Shown: positions 46,005 through 51,838 of the stretch, in pieces
How positions within the stretch are numbered: position 1 is the first letter of the stretch
Layout: every line of letters starts with the position of its first letter
Sequence record: OR544954
Reading direction: 5' to 3' (one strand)
Source: Escherichia phage vB_EcoM_EP32a
DNA: 64,000 bases
The notes under the pieces: model-generated
The model's database searches: none
What the model was told of the DNA's origin: nothing
Seen by the model: only the letters and a program-made list of their open reading frames with translations
Translations under genes and position numbers: made by a program

Positions 46005-46074
46005 TTTACAAACTCTCGAGAGCAGAGTATAATGCTCTCGTTGGATAATAAACCACCAATTGAAAGGTAATAAT
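46005..46074 (+). promoter_or_regulatory. early promoter / stem-loop cassette
   Basis: TTTACA, 17 nt, TATAAT; inverted repeat ctcgagagc/gctctcg around the -10. Confidence 0.6.
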
Positions 46075-46668
46075 ATGAACACACTGAAGAAACTTGTTGA
46101 ATTCATCCGCACTAAACTGGGTACTGCTATGGCTAAAAATCTGACTGTCGAAGAACAGTATAACGCAGCTGCAGATAAGTTGATTACCCAAATCAAAGAA
46201 CTAAAAACGGCTTCTGTTAAATCTATTAATGAAGAAAAACGTATTCGCGAACTTGTTAATGAAAAGAATAAGCAAGCCGCTTCTAAGGAACGTGAAATTC
46301 GTAAGCTCCTGGCTGAAGGACAAGATGTTACTATGCATGCTAAGCTTGGTCTTCTGTATCGTCGAACTGCCGAACAACTTAATACAAAAGCTGACGGGTA
46401 TGCCGCTATGCGAATTGAAATTGCTCGTAAGGTGGTTGAACTTGATGATGCTCGTCAGAATCTGGCAATCAAACTCGAATACATTCGTGAAACTCGAGCA
46501 GCCAATGCCCTTGGTATCTCTACGGCTGATGATGTAATTGAAATCGCTGCACTGACTAAGGTTGATATCGAAGACACTCTGACTCGTGTTGAAACGTTCA
46601 ATGGCACTCCAGCCGGTGTCGAAACCACTTCTGCTGATGTACAAGAATATATTAACTCTTTGAAATAA
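46075..46668 (+). CDS. coiled-coil protein, possibly PspA/IM30-like
   Basis: ORF track starts at 46060; Met at 46075 ([14 protein letters not shown]...); about 197 aa, predicted long helices; weak by-eye resemblance to PspA. Confidence 0.5.
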
Positions 46669-46717
46669 AATAATACGGAGGACTCCGGTCCTCCTTTTGG
46701 ATAATAAAGGAGTTAAC

Positions 46718-47320
46718 ATGCGAAACCAAAATAATGATATTGACTCAATGTTCGAAGAGTTCCGAAATAAGGTAAATCCACCTACGTCTTTAGTTGATTC
46801 ATTACGATATGTTGCAACTGGACGTAAATGGTACTGGTCGTCTTCTTATGAGACTACTGAGAAAACGGCCAGCCATAGCAGAAAATCTTTATTAGCCCCA
46901 GGTATTATGATTCATGATATCGGAGCTATTGCTAAACTAGTTGCAGACCATGATATTAGATTCACTGATTTCGTTGCTCCTACGTGGTCTGTTTGTTGTT
47001 TAAACACTGAATGGGAATATATCAGCGAACGCTCTAAAGATTATTATGGTTTTAGAGACAAGCTTTTAAGGTCTAACATGTTTTATATTGATACAGAAGT
47101 TCTGGTCAATAATAAAAAATACTACTTCACTTTAATCATCGATTCTGAAACTATGTATGAAGGCAAGCCTTTGCTTAAGAGAGTTGATGCTTTAAGTGCT
47201 ATTGATGCGCTTTATGAAACTATGGTTGTTAGTCCTAATTTCACTAACAATTTAATCCTTGAGCAATTTATTATGGAATGTAGAGAATATGTCAAAGCCA
47301 ACCCTATACATGCCAAGTAA
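46718..47320 (+). CDS. hypothetical protein
   Basis: ORF track starts at 46697; RBS aaggag plus Met at 46718 (same taaaggagttaacATG context as gene 26). Confidence 0.6.
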   Translation: MRNQNNDIDSMFEEFRNKVNPPTSLVDSLRYVATGRKWYWSSSYETTEKTASHSRKSLLAPGIMIHDIGAIAKLVADHDIRFTDFVAPTWSVCCLNTEWEYISERSKDYYGFRDKLLRSNMFYIDTEVLVNNKKYYFTLIIDSETMYEGKPLLKRVDALSAIDALYETMVVSPNFTNNLILEQFIMECREYVKANPIHAK

Positions 47321-47684
47321 GCCCTGGGCGTATGAATACAAGCGTAAATTAATCCCAAATGAAGTACTATTTGGCCCTATTTTAGCTTTAGCATTTTTAA
47401 TCTTTATGATTATAGGAGCTGTTTTAGATTCTAGTGAAGTTATATCGTCTGATGCAGCATTTTCATTAATGTTCGTCGCACCACTTATTGTACCGTTTTT
47501 ATTAATGCCTATTAATTGGGTAGGATATTGGCACCAAGGCCGTCATCACAGAGCCCGATTAAGAGAATGGAAAGTTCAGTGCGCAAAAGCCCAAGCTCAG
47601 TATGATGAAGCTGTTAAAAAGTATGAATATGAAGAAGCTATGGAATTCGTTAAGGAAATAAGATGCAAAAGCCTCAACTCTTAA
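47289..47684 (+). CDS. small membrane protein, C-terminal EFVKEIRCK family member
   Basis: Start ambiguous (Met at 47289 or 47310); two predicted TM helices; C-terminal motif shared with 47663, 50440 and 51347 ORFs. Confidence 0.55.
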   Translation: MSKPTLYMPSKPWAYEYKRKLIPNEVLFGPILALAFLIFMIIGAVLDSSEVISSDAAFSLMFVAPLIVPFLLMPINWVGYWHQGRHHRARLREWKVQCAKAQAQYDEAVKKYEYEEAMEFVKEIRCKSLNS

Positions 47685-48022
47685 CCGTATGGCCTTCTCT
47701 TGGTGAGAACATTCTAATTTTTATTATGAGTATTGGCATGGGATTTGCCTTTGGATTAGTTGGATTTCTTATTGACGGCGTTGTGTTAGGATTTATAGGG
47801 AACACTGGTGGATTCACAGACCAATGGCAGGACTTACGGTACACCCAAGCCTTTGCATCCATCGCATCATTTTGTACTGTAGTCTATTTTTACTACGATT
47901 TTATAAACCACAACAAGAAAAATAAAAAGGTTTACGCTTCTCAAATGATTAGTTATAATGAACTCCTAGCTAGACGTGAAAATGAAACAATCGAAAACTT
48001 TATTAAGGAATGTAGAAAATGA
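47663..48022 (+). CDS. small membrane protein, C-terminal ENFIKECRK family member
   Basis: 119 aa, RBS aagga; TM helices; C-terminus ...ETIENFIKECRK. Confidence 0.6.
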   Translation: MQKPQLLTVWPSLGENILIFIMSIGMGFAFGLVGFLIDGVVLGFIGNTGGFTDQWQDLRYTQAFASIASFCTVVYFYYDFINHNKKNKKVYASQMISYNELLARRENETIENFIKECRK

Positions 48023-48324
48023 GTAAGATTATTGAAATTAAAGTACCAGAGTTTAATGATGCCAAATCCGCTTCAGATGCAATTTATAAACTTCTGAATC
48101 AAGCTGAACGTATCGAAGAAGAAGCAACAAAGATCGCAGACCAATATGCCGTATCATTTTCTGTAGGTGATTATGGTAGCGGTCGTACTTATTATCCTAA
48201 GGGTGAAATCGTATCCCAGTGGATGAAAGATGAAATTGAAAATAATGGCGGCGATGTTAAGCGTGAAGGTAATGGATACGTTATTACTGAAGGTGCTTGG
48301 GTTTCGTCTTCTGCGTTGTGCTAA
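48019..48324 (+). CDS. hypothetical protein, tandem paralog 1 (C-terminal GAWVSSSALC)
   Basis: 101 aa; shares a GxGxTYxxPG-like middle motif and the C-terminal GWV[SA]SSxxC motif with the next two ORFs. Confidence 0.6.
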   Translation: MSKIIEIKVPEFNDAKSASDAIYKLLNQAERIEEEATKIADQYAVSFSVGDYGSGRTYYPKGEIVSQWMKDEIENNGGDVKREGNGYVITEGAWVSSSALC

Positions 48325-48333
48325 GGAATCATT

Positions 48334-48606
48334 ATGTCTAAAGAACAAACCGAACTGGCTGAAGCTGTAGCAAAAATCTATGCAGCTATTGAGGCTGCCA
48401 AAGAAATTGCTGATAAACAAAACACAACATTCAACTTGTACCCAGCTTATGGTATGGGTGGAACCTATCATTCACCCGGACATCTTAAAGCCGATCTTGA
48501 ACGTTGTACAAAAAACGGCTATGCTGAATGGGCTGACGTTTACCAATACGACTACAACCTGAGCCTCGAAACTGGTGGTTGGGTCGCATCTTCTCACACT
48601 TGCTAA
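48334..48606 (+). CDS. hypothetical protein, tandem paralog 2 (C-terminal GGWVASSHTC)
   Basis: 90 aa; RBS ctaaggaa; same family. Confidence 0.6.
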   Translation: MSKEQTELAEAVAKIYAAIEAAKEIADKQNTTFNLYPAYGMGGTYHSPGHLKADLERCTKNGYAEWADVYQYDYNLSLETGGWVASSHTC

Positions 48607-48615
48607 GGAAACAAT

Positions 48616-48813
48616 ATGTCTCGTGAATTAGATTGTGCTGTACGTACGGCAGTAGCTGCTCTGGAAAACCTGTTCCAAATTGCAACAGAAGAACGCGAAG
48701 AAGTTACATTATGGATTGAAGATAACGCAGGTCTGAATCTCCAGGACGCGATCTCATTATCCCACAATAGTATCACTGTTCAAGGCTGGGTATCATCTAG
48801 TTATTCTTGCTAA
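48616..48813 (+). CDS. hypothetical protein, tandem paralog 3 (C-terminal QGWVSSSYSC)
   Basis: 65 aa; RBS ctaaggaa; same family, shortest member. Confidence 0.55.
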   Translation: MSRELDCAVRTAVAALENLFQIATEEREEVTLWIEDNAGLNLQDAISLSHNSITVQGWVSSSYSC

Positions 48814-48817
48814 AACA

Positions 48818-48875
48818 GTTTACAACAAGATAGGGCTATGTTATAGTAGTCCTATCAAAACAAATGGAGTCCACA
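48818..48875 (+). promoter_or_regulatory. PeSL-like early promoter cassette
   Basis: GTTTACA, spacer, TATAGT; inverted repeat gatagggcta/tagtcctatc (one mismatch); leader caaaacaaatggag. Confidence 0.65.
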
Positions 48876-49115
48876 ATGATTTATTACGAAAGTATCGGAA
48901 CCAAAGTGGTTGGCAAAACCATTACTCGTGAAAAGTTTGCAAAGATATTCGATATGCGTTATAAAAAATCTGAACACAAAGGCATCCGATTCGAAGATGC
49001 GCACTGTACAATTTGCCCTTATAATGAAGACATAAACGGTACAATCGTTCCATTGGTAGAAGCTTCACATGATGACCTCTGGGATGAATATAATATCGCA
49101 TGTCGTGAAATTTAA
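48876..49115 (+). CDS. hypothetical protein
   Basis: ORF track starts at 48864; Met at 48876 after the conserved leader; about 79 aa. Confidence 0.55.
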   Translation: MIYYESIGTKVVGKTITREKFAKIFDMRYKKSEHKGIRFEDAHCTICPYNEDINGTIVPLVEASHDDLWDEYNIACREI

Positions 49116-49143
49116 GTTAATGAATTAATCCGAGGAAAATATT

Positions 49144-50100
49144 ATGATGTTAGTTATTGGTTCTCGTGCACTTCACTATCACGGTCTTATTGATTCTAGC
49201 GCTATCAAAAATAGTGATTGGGACTTTATTGCGGACCAAGGTTCTTGGAATGCATTCAAAAATCAAATGATGGGTGTATATGTCCACCAAGATAACCCTG
49301 ATGTCCAAGTTTTCAAATGCTTCCATAATGGTCGCGAAACTCATTTTGAAGCATATATTGTTCCGGCAATCACTAATGTCCGTGAATTAGTCGGTGAACT
49401 CACTCCTGAAGATTTCACATCTTCTTATGACCTTTTAAAATACGCCAAGAAAAATTTGACTAAAGACCGTTTGAACGGGTTTTACTGGGCAACTCCTGAG
49501 ATATGTCTTGCAATTAAGATGTCTCATCGTTTCAAGAAAAATAATCCATTCTTTTTAAAGACTATGAACCATATTCAGTATCTTCGTGGTAAAGGTGTTA
49601 CACTGAACGATGAACTTACTGAAATTATGCTGAAACGCCAAAAAGAAACTTTGAACTATGCTCACCCTGTTCTTGACACTTCTAAAAGTGCGTTCTTTAA
49701 AGATGACATCTATACATATGACCATGATACTATTCACGAAGCCATTGCACTAACAGACCGTCCGGCTTATATGTTTTACATGAAAGATGGTTCTGAAGTC
49801 ATGACCTCACGCGAGAAGTTCGAATCATTACCGGAAATGGTCAAATTGGCCGGTGTATATGAAGAATCATGTGTACTAGCATTAGAACGTTCTCAGATTC
49901 CTAACGACTTTAAAATCCATCCACGTGATAGTTTTATGATGGCCCTTGAAAAGGTCTGTACATCAATCACATCAGGATGGTTCCGTGAGTTCGCTTGGGA
50001 AAATTATAGCAAAGTAGTAAGTATGTACCAAAGCTTAGGACACGACGATTACGTCAAGCGTTTCAAACAAAACTTTCATATGGTAAAACCTTTCAAATAA
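49144..50100 (+). CDS. hypothetical 318 aa protein, possible nucleotidyltransferase-like N-terminus
   Basis: RBS gaggaaaa; N-terminal IGSRALHYHGL...SDWDF loosely resembles the GS-x(n)-DxD pattern of Pol-beta-superfamily nucleotidyltransferases (spacing longer than canonical). Confidence 0.5.
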   Translation: MMLVIGSRALHYHGLIDSSAIKNSDWDFIADQGSWNAFKNQMMGVYVHQDNPDVQVFKCFHNGRETHFEAYIVPAITNVRELVGELTPEDFTSSYDLLKYAKKNLTKDRLNGFYWATPEICLAIKMSHRFKKNNPFFLKTMNHIQYLRGKGVTLNDELTEIMLKRQKETLNYAHPVLDTSKSAFFKDDIYTYDHDTIHEAIALTDRPAYMFYMKDGSEVMTSREKFESLPEMVKLAGVYEESCVLALERSQIPNDFKIHPRDSFMMALEKVCTSITSGWFREFAWENYSKVVSMYQSLGHDDYVKRFKQNFHMVKPFK

Positions 50101-50112
50101 TTTCACAAAACA

Positions 50113-50180
50113 GTTTACAAGGTCTGTAGTTGTTGATACTATAGACCTATCAAAACAAATGAGTGAATGGAGATATAAAA
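50113..50180 (+). promoter_or_regulatory. PeSL-like early promoter cassette
   Basis: GTTTACA, spacer, TACTAT; inverted repeat ggtctgtag/ctatagacc; leader caaaacaaatgagtgaatggagatataaaaATG. Confidence 0.65.
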
Positions 50181-50381
50181 ATGACTACTTTGAATAAACG
50201 TTTCGGTAAAGCTAAACCTGGTTGTGCAGCAGAACGTCGTTATGTTTTCGCTCAGTTAGAAGATGTAGAGTATCAGATTAATCAAGTTCACATTACTGGT
50301 ATCGAGCCTATGTGTGGCCTTGAAGCTCTTCGTGAAGTTCGTGATGGGTATCGTCGTGACATCGAAGAAATGTCAAAATAA
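50181..50381 (+). CDS. hypothetical small protein
   Basis: ORF track starts at 50163; Met at 50181 after the conserved leader; 66 aa. Confidence 0.55.
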   Translation: MTTLNKRFGKAKPGCAAERRYVFAQLEDVEYQINQVHITGIEPMCGLEALREVRDGYRRDIEEMSK

Positions 50382-50382
50382 G

Positions 50383-50439
50383 TGTACAAACTGATAGGAC
50401 TATGTTATAGTAGTCCTATTAAAACATGAGGAGAATATT
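50383..50439 (+). promoter_or_regulatory. PeSL-like early promoter cassette
   Basis: GTGTACA, spacer, TATAGT; 9-bp inverted repeat ataggacta/tagtcctat as in the 42869 copy; RBS gaggag. Confidence 0.65.
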
Positions 50440-50745
50440 ATGAAATTAGGCGAAACCAACCGAATTGGTCTTTTAACAATATTTGTATCACTTTTTTACG
50501 CAGCTCTTTCTGTTGCAGTATTACAAAAGGCTTACAGTATGGATGGTGTTCCTGGTTGTATATTTTTATCACCATTTTTGCTATTCGTTGGAGCTTTGTT
50601 ATTATATGCCACGTCTGGTTTCGACAATAATGTCTGGGTCAATTATAAACGTAAATTGTCTGAAGAAGAACACGCAGAAGCTCGTAAAAAAGCTATTGAA
50701 TCTACCAATCTAGAAAATTTCATTAAAGAATGTCGAGGAAAATAA
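50440..50745 (+). CDS. small membrane protein, C-terminal ENFIKECRGK family member
   Basis: 101 aa; two TM helices; C-terminus ...STNLENFIKECRGK. Confidence 0.6.
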   Translation: MKLGETNRIGLLTIFVSLFYAALSVAVLQKAYSMDGVPGCIFLSPFLLFVGALLLYATSGFDNNVWVNYKRKLSEEEHAEARKKAIESTNLENFIKECRGK

Positions 50746-50789
50746 TATGAATAGTTCTAAAGTGTTTAATAGTCAAGCTCGTGCAGTAG

Positions 50790-51347
50790 GTGGTTTTGCT
50801 CACGCGATTAAAAATGACCAGATTAAAAACGAGCCTATGTTCTTCAACTGTAGTATTTGATTCACGAGTCCATATGCTGATGCCTGGTTGGTATCCTGCT
50901 ATTCCAGGTTATCACCATGACGATGTACCACGCCCGGATATTCCAGTTGGTCAACACTTTATTACTGCAGGACAACCTGACTATGACAATCCTCGCTATT
51001 TGTCTGAACACATTCTTGGTCTTGTTAACGCTGATGTGTGTCCTACTCATTTTGCAACAGGAACTGCAGAGTTCAGTCAGATTCCTGATGGCGAACTTAT
51101 CTATCGCCAGTGGCACAAAGAAGTCCTCGAAAAAATCGAAAAAGGTGAACTAGAGAAATGGGAAGCTCCGGACCGTACTCTTCTTCAGTTTGATTGGCAA
51201 ACATGGCACACTGGTTCTCGTGCAATTAGTAATGGATGGCGTTGGTTCGGACGTGTATCTCGTAATACAGACCGAGTTAAAAAGATTACCAATGAAATTC
51301 GTGTCAATGCTCAAGTTTATCTGGAATTCCCTATGGAAGGCTGGTAA
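50790..51347 (+). CDS. hypothetical protein, possibly frameshifted
   Basis: 185 aa ORF whose 5' end overlaps, in another frame, a 37-codon ORF (50747-50860) that starts 1 nt after the upstream stop; no RBS for internal Mets. Confidence 0.4.
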   Translation: MVLLTRLKMTRLKTSLCSSTVVFDSRVHMLMPGWYPAIPGYHHDDVPRPDIPVGQHFITAGQPDYDNPRYLSEHILGLVNADVCPTHFATGTAEFSQIPDGELIYRQWHKEVLEKIEKGELEKWEAPDRTLLQFDWQTWHTGSRAISNGWRWFGRVSRNTDRVKKITNEIRVNAQVYLEFPMEGW

Positions 51348-51838
51348 TGATTAACAAAACATATTGGTCTAATATTGACGACGGCAATGAAGGTATTTCA
51401 TACTATTCAGTAGATTGGACAGGATGTCCATCCTACTTAGTGAAACGTATTTGCCAAGAATTTAAAATCGACCAGCCAGCAGGTATTATCGTGAACAGAT
51501 ACATTAATGGATATCAACCTATCGATGAAGTAATACGAACAACTCAAGCTGAGCTTGAAAAGTTTTTCAATAAGTGCCAATGGATAACAGGATGGATTAT
51601 ATTTGTACCGTCTATATGGTTTTTCAGTACTAAGGTGAGTTCTTTCGGTTTTGTTGATATTATTGCTATCTTATTAGCATCTACTATCGTAAGTATTATT
51701 GGCGGTATAATTGGTGGAGGTACTGTAGGCATCATTATTAATCTTATTAAAAGTAGTTTACAAGAACATAAAGACAAGATAAAAGCCAAGAATAATGAAG
51801 TTGAACGTTTTATTACCGAATGCAGGAATTTGAGATGA
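51347..51838 (+). CDS. membrane protein, C-terminal ERFITECRNLR family member
   Basis: 163 aa; TM helices with GGIIGGGTVGIII segment; ATGA overlap with upstream stop; C-terminal motif as family. Confidence 0.6.
   Translation: MINKTYWSNIDDGNEGISYYSVDWTGCPSYLVKRICQEFKIDQPAGIIVNRYINGYQPIDEVIRTTQAELEKFFNKCQWITGWIIFVPSIWFFSTKVSSFGFVDIIAILLASTIVSIIGGIIGGGTVGIIINLIKSSLQEHKDKIKAKNNEVERFITECRNLR

Follow-up and report, generated by a model that had tools for sequence, protein, structure and literature searches.

We analysed a window of 64,000 nucleotides from Escherichia phage vB_EcoM_EP32a (sequence record OR544954), a T-even phage approximately 98% identical to Mosigvirus-type phages (JK42, APCEc01 and phage 55), and identified five neighbouring genes whose products share a C-terminal tail. 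All positions are those of the whole window unless another record is named. The genes lie within the 45-53 kb interval that corresponds to the "e cluster" of phage T4, between the tRNA genes and nudE, e (lysozyme) and denV. Open reading frames (ORFs) were assigned with PHROG profiles and tblastn, giving the same-strand gene order e.6, e.5, e.4, e.3, an inserted block, ORF133c, the phrog_1843 gene, e.2, a small ORF, nudE and e. The five tail carriers are homologues of T4 e.5, e.4, e.3 and e.2 and of RB69 ORF133c (PHROG families 2607, 2604, 2330, 2203/35263 and 9798, respectively, with Pfam PF26876 for e.5). All five match full-length PHROG family profiles significantly and occupy, on one strand, the position between e.6 and nudE/e, and their order matches that of T4, in which they lie between the tRNA/e.8-e.6 genes and nudE/e. 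The carriers and their left-hand neighbour are:

46075-46668, + strand: e.6 homologue, 197 amino acids, all-helical, probably PspA/IM30/ESCRT-III-like; constant left-hand neighbour of the tail genes and their proposed partner
46718-47320, + strand: e.5 homologue, 200 amino acids, soluble, tail ending ..LILEQFIMECREYVKANPIHAK; motif at 47261-47284; phrog_2607, expectation value (E) 8.6e-96
47289-47684, + strand: e.4 homologue, 131 amino acids, two transmembrane (TM) segments at residues 26-44 and 57-75, tail ending ..EAMEFVKEIRCKSLNS; motif at 47643-47663; phrog_2604, E 2.7e-64
47663-48022, + strand: e.3 homologue, 119 amino acids, tail ending ..TIENFIKECRK; motif at 47993-48016; phrog_2330, E 4.5e-50
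50440-50745, + strand: RB69 ORF133c-type protein, 101 amino acids, two TM segments at residues 9-27 and 37-55, tail ending ..NLENFIKECRGK; motif at 50713-50736; phrog_9798, E 2.7e-64
51347-51838, + strand: full-length e.2 homologue, 163 amino acids, tail ending ..EVERFITECRNLR; motif at 51803-51826; phrog_2203, E 3.7e-55

An initial annotation of this stretch had described four of these ORFs (e.4, e.3, ORF133c and e.2) as paralogous small membrane proteins with an almost invariant tail. The four ORFs are present and end as it reported (EFVKEIRCKSLNS, ENFIKECRK, ENFIKECRGK and ERFITECRNLR), and hydropathy analysis recovered TM or long hydrophobic segments in all of them. The soluble e.5 homologue at 46718-47320, ending ..LEQFIMECREYVKANPIHAK, had been overlooked, and the tail is not confined to membrane proteins as had been supposed. 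Translating the whole window in six frames gave four matches to the strict motif E.F[IV].E[CI]R, compared with 0.006 expected from composition and a maximum of one in 300 residue shuffles. All four occurrences are on the + strand, within 4.6 kb, and lie 9-19 residues ahead of a stop codon. One of them falls in the e.5 homologue; the e.4 homologue carries the variant EFVKEIR-C in place of the strict motif.

Membership of the tail family was defined as a score of at least 15 bits on a position matrix of the tail, within the last 24 residues of the protein, and is satisfied by all five window proteins. They score 17.7-26.4 bits with a matrix built from the tails of other genera, from which Mosigvirus sequences had been left out, against approximately 10 bits for the best unrelated C-terminus. 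With the full matrix of 28 tails they score 21.1-28.6 bits, against 9.2 bits for the best non-member among the 776 ORFs of T4 and the window. Overall, members score 15-29 bits and all other C-termini 9.2 bits or less, and in T4 and the window the tail-bearing genes are restricted to the e cluster.

The best non-member, the C-terminus of thymidine kinase (DRYVSLCR), was judged a chance match. The window ORF at 48864-49115 (..DEYNIACREI) was considered as a sixth carrier and was not counted, scoring -5.1 bits. Its 83-amino-acid product ends ..LWDEYNIACREI. The tail motif is borne by the small proteins that occupy this position in phage Moon and in Gaprivervirus P896 (ending ..ELFIMQCRMRKTECC and ..KLFLEYCRSSIQV, respectively), and the window copy is degenerate. 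We additionally noted a weak resemblance to the tail in T4 e.7 (NC_000866 69968-70303, ending ..AINAFIDELDEE), which ranks 16th of the 776 ORFs at 6.5 bits and is probably a chance match.

Four of the carriers are of the membrane type and one, e.5, is soluble. The e.4 and ORF133c proteins each contain two clear TM segments by hydropathy, and e.3 and e.2 each contain one long hydrophobic stretch and a weaker aromatic segment. The stretch and the weaker segment lie at residues 17-45 and 62-80 of the e.3 homologue, and the e.2 homologue has an N-terminal soluble domain (W..[IL]DDGDEGI..VDW.GC) followed by a hydrophobic region at residues 78-134. A K/R-rich juxtamembrane stretch precedes every tail, and the tail is therefore predicted, by the positive-inside rule and hydropathy alone, to be cytoplasmic. 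ORF133c-type sequences were found by tblastn in 149 records, all at least 80% identical and all Mosigvirus-like, and the window protein also matches phrog_2203 weakly. The e.5 homologue is 47% identical to T4 e.5 by tblastn, its assignment to Pfam PF26876 is precomputed, and homology searches with it recovered 3, then 12 clusters. Our own Pfam and NCBIfam scans of the five carriers and a PADLOC scan returned no match. PHROG families exist for all five, and the earlier view that the family is uncharacterised stands.

Conservation of the tail in further genera was read from the regions around e.6, a widely conserved gene that served as the anchor and is represented by 1109 records of the GenBank phage collection. 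A related-locus search in IMG/VR gave few, closely related loci, and diversity was taken from the GenBank collection. The tail was identified in Tequatrovirus, Mosigvirus, Gaprivervirus, Dhakavirus, Jiaodavirus, Moonvirus, Roskildevirus, Biquartavirus and Pseudotevenvirus, and in related metagenomic contigs; it is kept in related phages and is not confined to the four ORFs of the initial annotation. The family spans phages of Escherichia, Klebsiella, Citrobacter, Erwinia and Aeromonas.

The T4 and RB69 genes are direct homologues of the window carriers, with the same gene order and the same tails, and are annotated as hypothetical or predicted membrane proteins. A six-frame scan of the complete T4 genome placed the motif close to the end of a genuine ORF in just three genes, e.5 (..LEKFVKECREYVKAITIPSK, containing ..EKFVKECREY..), e.4 (..MKFVKESRCKSQS, containing ..KFVKESRC..) and e.3 (..KEFVIDCRKIK). 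One further occurrence, ..NNFITECRKLK, lies in a frame just upstream of nudE and is the out-of-frame tail of e.2. The e.2 gene of the T4 reference (NC_000866 67491-67960, - strand) is truncated to 102 amino acids, compared with 162 in the intact Tequatrovirus homologue and 163 in the intact window form. The T4 gene acquires two internal stops through a -1 indel in an A-run and, 77 nucleotides further on, a +1 indel; the tail is regained just before nudE. These indels could be genuine, as a double frameshift, or could stem from an error in sequencing the reference.

Beyond T4, Gaprivervirus and Dhakavirus tails include ..RFIAECREY.., ..EFIKEVRNGTA, ..TFIKECKS and ..SFIEECRK, the last three terminal. 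A 95-amino-acid soluble protein in Moonvirus also bears the tail (ending ..ELFIMQCRMRKTECC), as does a 289-amino-acid carrier in the Aeromonas Biquartavirus (ending ..ELFIDYCRRTAPKRD). The Pseudotevenvirus carriers, of 301-328 amino acids, contain ..EKFIHSCKK.. or ..EQFINECKE.., followed by 23-30 more residues. The distance from the Phe to the C-terminus has a median of nine residues, and the tail usually lies 6-13 residues from the C-terminus.

Among 28 tails, position 0 is Phe in 26 and Trp in two, +1 is Ile in 20 and Val in eight, and +5 is Arg in 24 and Lys in four, these three positions being partly fixed by the regular expression that located the tail in proteins selected for their homology and synteny. 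Positions -3 and +4, which were free, are hydrophobic in 79% and 96% of the tails, respectively, with Cys at +4 in 20 of the 28. Together with the hydrophobic residues at 0 and +1 (100%), this gives the tail a helical hydrophobic periodicity that is followed by an always basic residue at +5. Cys at +4 is replaced by Ile, Ser, Val, Met or Leu in the e.4 lineage and in a few other sequences. The description of the tail as almost invariant holds to the extent that it is the most conserved part of the carriers, and fails for the Cys.

Alignments of the individual families place the tail at their conserved core. Among e.5-like proteins from eight genera, with 13-47% identity, the only invariant columns are the start Met and the tail residues F184 and C188. 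F120 and R125 are invariant in the e.4 family, and the Phe, Ile, Glu, Cys and Arg of the tail are invariant in an alignment of e.2 with Tequatrovirus and Gaprivervirus homologues of 31-39% identity. The tail is similarly the conserved core of the e.3 family. Soluble e.5-like proteins are the most widespread carriers. A common cytoplasmic partner, as suggested in the initial annotation, is a reasonable expectation and is strengthened by the finding that the tail is the most conserved part of the proteins.

We compared the carriers with each other outside the tail. Profile comparison with hhalign related e.4 to the e.3 family over TM2, the basic juxtamembrane stretch and the tail (probability 94%, E 1.3e-7), and the e.3 family to the short e.2/ORF133c group (probability 92%, E 7e-7). 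The long e.2 proteins match the short group in the tail only, although ORF133c weakly matches the e.2 PHROG. Paralogy beyond the tail is accordingly upheld for e.4, e.3 and the ORF133c/short-e.2 group. The soluble domains of e.5-like proteins are unrelated to the other carriers. The carrier family is, on these comparisons, a mixture of tandem paralogues and at least one domain that appears to have gained the tail.

The junction between the e.5 tail and the start of e.4 resembles that between the e.4 tail and the start of e.3, and both downstream proteins begin M-[SQ]-K-P-x-L. We additionally identified five Gaprivervirus-like IMG/VR contigs (L014, L016, L019, L020 and L022, at approximately 1.8-2.7 kb in each) without e.4. 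The e.5 protein of these contigs ends ..FIAECREYAKEVQNGTA, combining the e.5 tail with that of e.4 (..EEFIKEVRNGTA); this hybrid suggests that e.4 was deleted by recombination between the two tail-coding segments. Given the hybrid tail and the loss of e.4, the tail-coding segments would therefore also serve as recombination points.

We considered three explanations of the tail other than docking. The tail could be a functionless relic of recent tandem duplication and recombination among paralogues, and the homology of e.4 and e.3 over TM2 and the tail, the similarity of the e.5/e.4 and e.4/e.3 junctions, and the apparent tail-to-tail recombination in some Gaprivervirus genomes would all fit. 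We regard this as very improbable, since orthologues at 13-25% identity keep the tail while the remainder changes, and unrelated N-terminal domains carry it, including those of the soluble e.5-like proteins (184-328 amino acids) and of the 95-amino-acid protein of phage Moon. An origin as a by-product of translation initiation was suggested by the position of the tail codons, which overlap or abut the Shine-Dalgarno sequence and ATG of the next, coupled gene in all five window genes, with AAGGAA encoding K-E in two of them and the cluster genes overlapping by 4-32 nucleotides. However, synonymous positions vary (Phe is TTT in 19 cases and TTC in seven, Cys is TGT in 10 and TGC in 10, and all six Arg codons are used), the Cys codon is separated from the next ATG by anything from 5 to 16 nucleotides, and the Shine-Dalgarno sequence falls on differing residues. 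The motif is also retained where the following gene is not close by or the tail stops short of the gene end, as in Biquartavirus and Pseudotevenvirus, and its hydrophobic residues follow a helical periodicity. Because of these features, selection on the tail is judged to act on the protein and not on the overlapping ribosome-binding sites, and the initiation explanation is largely refuted and in our view scarcely credible.

A signal for degradation, processing or modification centred on the Cys (a degron, disulfide, metal site or lipidation site) would suit a C-terminal, exposed tail with a near-constant Cys-Arg. This explanation appears unlikely: whole orthologous lineages exchange the Cys for Ile, Ser, Val, Met or Leu yet keep the Phe, Ile/Val and Arg, a single Cys in the reducing cytoplasm is an unlikely disulfide or metal site, and we know of no degron of this pattern. 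We instead consider, with high confidence, that the tail is a predicted cytoplasmic, amphipathic C-terminal docking helix common to membrane-anchored and soluble proteins. Its pattern comprises a hydrophobic residue at -3, Phe or Trp at 0, Ile or Val at +1, Cys or another hydrophobic residue at +4 and Arg or Lys at +5, and all tails would dock on one common partner.

We investigated the gene e.6 as the candidate for this partner. Two further features flank it in the window:

46005-46033, + strand: sigma-70-type promoter-like site TTTACA-17-TATAAT, matching 11 of 12 consensus positions, upstream of the e.6 homologue; such sites are not significantly commoner in the region than in shuffles, and this one is a consensus match only
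46677-46694, + strand: GC-rich hairpin of seven pairs followed by a T-run, terminator-like, between the e.6 stop and the e.5 start

The context of e.6 was examined in 11 genomes or contigs in addition to T4 and the window, and in 10 of these the gene directly downstream carries the tail, in a looser form in one. The 10 comprise Gaprivervirus, Dhakavirus, Jiaodavirus, Moonvirus, Roskildevirus, Biquartavirus and Pseudotevenvirus, two Pseudotevenvirus-like contigs and the distant contig L043. A tail gene adjoins e.6, or sits at most 5 kb downstream, in every e.6-bearing genome examined. In L043, the four genes that follow a PspA_IM30-positive e.6 homologue all end in the looser pattern I-[LVI]-x-x-[AT]-[RK]. 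In the eleventh context, contig L044, the gene directly downstream of e.6 is without the tail, and the looser form is found on an overlapping upstream gene and on one gene approximately 1.6 kb downstream. The loose pattern is present in 3.4% of T4 ORF C-termini; the endings in these two contigs look like a lineage-specific variant of the tail. Both contigs are metagenomic and T4-like, with distant e.6 homologues that are PspA_IM30-positive, and the endings read SILANARER, AIVHRARLE, RIVFITRQR and TIIARAKSS in L043 (4661-6293), and KIIETAKKR and NIIEEAKSR in L044 (3315-4004 and 6236-6778). In Acinetobacter phage 133, of which 130 of 160 kb were scanned, including all early regions, we found no e.6 homologue and no tail-bearing ORF, the best matrix score being 8.5 bits.

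The e.6 product is probably a PspA/IM30/ESCRT-III-like protein, judging from its predicted fold and from distant profile matches. PspA itself is a bacterial protein of membrane repair. Its AlphaFold2 (AF2) model, with a predicted local distance difference test score (pLDDT) of 75, contains helices at residues 3-17, 25-80, 86-145, 151-160, 166-173 and 186-196. This predicted architecture fits that of the PspA/IM30 (Vipp1)/ESCRT-III proteins in its length of approximately 200 amino acids, N-terminal amphipathic helix, long helical hairpin and short C-terminal helices. The nine best Foldseek matches of the model in the PDB are all Vipp1, PspA or CdvB2, and the match list includes the Vipp1 F197K/L200K interface mutant. 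In a viral structure library, past e.6 homologues and one unnamed protein, a Snf7 family protein ranks seventh and a phage PspA/IM30 family protein thirteenth. At the sequence level, the e.6 profile aligns colinearly with Vipp1/IM30 from residue 2 to approximately 140, with weak E-values of 0.25-2. One of eight aligned e.6 homologues matches Pfam PspA_IM30 (PF04012) at E 4.2e-4. Other members of the family score higher: the more distant P0139 reaches 35.1 bits over residues 7-146 (profile positions 3-143, E 1.4e-8), above the PF04012 gathering score of 33.9, and P0163 reaches 26.9 bits. One e.6 homologue is labelled "phage shock protein A" in its JGI source.

Three results argue against this assignment. 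The window e.6 protein has no match to PF04012 at E of 0.1 or less. An exhaustive profile search of 1.84 billion proteins returned a compact e.6 family of 51 representatives and no canonical PspA, and a direct hhalign comparison with E. coli PspA was weak.

T4 is the best-studied lytic phage, and roughly half of its genes are without a function, e.2-e.6 among them. Our literature searches found no description of the function of e.2-e.6 or of a T4 PspA homologue. In the searchable literature we likewise found no account of the shared tail, its breadth, its soluble carriers, its linkage to e.6 or the PspA-likeness of e.6, and e.2-e.6 are not discussed in the main text of T4 omics and essentiality papers. 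The e.2-e.5 ORFs are already known as hypothetical genes; as far as the literature we searched goes, the shared tail and the link to e.6 appear to be new.

Small inner-membrane proteins encoded beside a PspA/IM30-type gene are known in bacteria: PspB and PspC in E. coli and Yersinia, and LiaI in Bacillus subtilis. In current models, their cytoplasmic segments bring the PspA-like polymer to the membrane or regulate it there. The phage carriers resemble them in adjoining a PspA-family-like gene, if e.6 is accepted as such. They differ in having no sequence similarity to these proteins (no Pfam PspB, PspC or LiaI-LiaF-TM match for any of the five), and in that the phage set has soluble carriers and up to five paralogues per genome. 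Short C-terminal amphipathic docking helices with a basic residue at the end are likewise known from the MIM motifs of ESCRT-III and from helix alpha5 of Vipp1/PspA, which docks on the neighbouring subunit. The tail, as a short C-terminal amphipathic helix with a basic end, is similar to these, and we treat the likeness as a lead only. Unlike MIM1, it does not fit (D/E)xxLxxRLxxL(K/R), and the carriers are themselves not ESCRT-III-like.

The partner that we favour for the tail is the e.6 product, which would act as a membrane-remodelling protein of the PspA/IM30 type (ESCRT-III superfamily). It is the most economical candidate because the tail genes accompany e.6 and are missing where it is missing, and we regard binding to e.6, as opposed to another phage or host protein, as plausible while falling somewhat short of probable. 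The e.4, e.3, ORF133c and e.2 proteins would then be inner-membrane anchors or nucleators of a PspA-like polymer, in parallel to PspB/PspC for PspA and LiaI for LiaH. The soluble e.5-like protein might be a regulator, cargo or client that uses the same tail. During infection the carriers would together bring the e.6 polymer to the host inner membrane or control it there, with membrane maintenance as the presumed biological role. As a whole, an e-cluster module of tail adaptors docking on e.6 is a tentative proposal. Its broadest form is the more doubtful suggestion that T4-like phages (Straboviridae) carry their own PspA/ESCRT-III-type remodelling system. In that form e.6, a soluble e.5-like protein and up to four two-TM adaptors, docked via an F-I-x-x-C-R helix, would stabilise or reshape the host inner membrane, for example in lysis inhibition, superinfection stress or envelope damage.

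Several observations weigh against a docking module built on e.6. In the tightly packed early region of a phage, the fact that two genes adjoin is a weak indication that their products interact physically. The C-terminus of e.6 itself, ..VQEYINSLK, is only loosely tail-like: this Y-I-N-S-L-K look-alike scores 0.8 bits and ranks 59th of the 776 ORFs, and it was rejected as a member of the family. By the same result there is no statistical support for the tail as a mimic of the last helix of e.6. The AF2 model of the e.5 homologue, built from a shallow alignment, has a pLDDT of 40 and is unusable. In a CRISPRi-ART screen, T4 e.2-e.6 are listed as of unknown function and scored as "Not Fit", which denotes that knock-down in the laboratory caused no loss of fitness (PMC11879866, supplementary files 8 and 15). 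Any role of e.2-e.6 would therefore be conditional.

The tail might alternatively dock on some other common partner, such as host PspA/PspF, FtsH or another AAA+ machine, the divisome, or another phage protein, in the service of host takeover, superinfection exclusion, anti-defence or lysis timing. This is a possibility that we would not discount, and we consider another common partner, of host or phage origin, about as likely as e.6. All of the evidence for a conserved, protein-level C-terminal motif fits it equally, the carriers are small membrane proteins in a non-essential accessory region, and the paralogues of one genome share one motif variant, as would be expected with any single co-evolving partner. 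However, another partner would leave unexplained the adjacency to e.6, which extends from the Tevenvirinae to Biquartavirus and Pseudotevenvirus and across hosts from Escherichia to Aeromonas, and a conserved host target would not obviously predict the motif variant of L043 and L044. The carriers also resemble neither Imm nor Sp, nor any family of defence or anti-defence proteins in Pfam, PHROG or PADLOC. This bears equally on the initial annotation, which had offered superinfection exclusion and immunity as a reasonable guess at the functional class of the membrane proteins. Imm and Sp are likewise small T4 early-region proteins that act at the cell envelope, but they share no motif with the carriers, and imm and sp lie at other T4 loci. 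The guess is not borne out, and the constant PspA-like neighbour points to a membrane function other than superinfection exclusion.

The analysis joins five anonymous ORFs and their neighbour in one testable module, with a defined eight-residue handle and a candidate partner. If docking on e.6 is correct, large lytic phages would come equipped with machinery of their own for membrane stress or remodelling, dedicated adaptors included, adding to the biology of PspA, Vipp1 and ESCRT-III and to the understanding of how phages keep the host envelope energised until lysis. Should the link to e.6 fail, the tail still marks a conserved short linear motif with a partner worth finding.

Finally, we noted two features of the surrounding genes. 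Three tandem paralogous small soluble proteins at 48019-48324, 48334-48606 and 48616-48813 share a second C-terminal motif, G-x-W-V-[SA]-S-S-x-x-C, directly before the stop codon, with the endings ..GAWVSSSALC, ..GGWVASSHTC and ..QGWVSSSYSC. This motif is present in five copies in Gaprivervirus P896 (contig L009, 1658-2926) and in three in phage Moon (L036, 9066-9835). The annotation "FRD3 protein" on some records of this region may refer to these proteins. Between ORF133c and e.2, at 50747-51347, a highly conserved gene of 228 amino acids (phrog_1843, containing ..PGYHHDDVPRPDIP..) is disrupted, relative to phage 55, by an 86-nucleotide deletion at 50852/50853, and its remnants in the window are a 37-amino-acid ORF and a frameshifted ORF of 185 amino acids.

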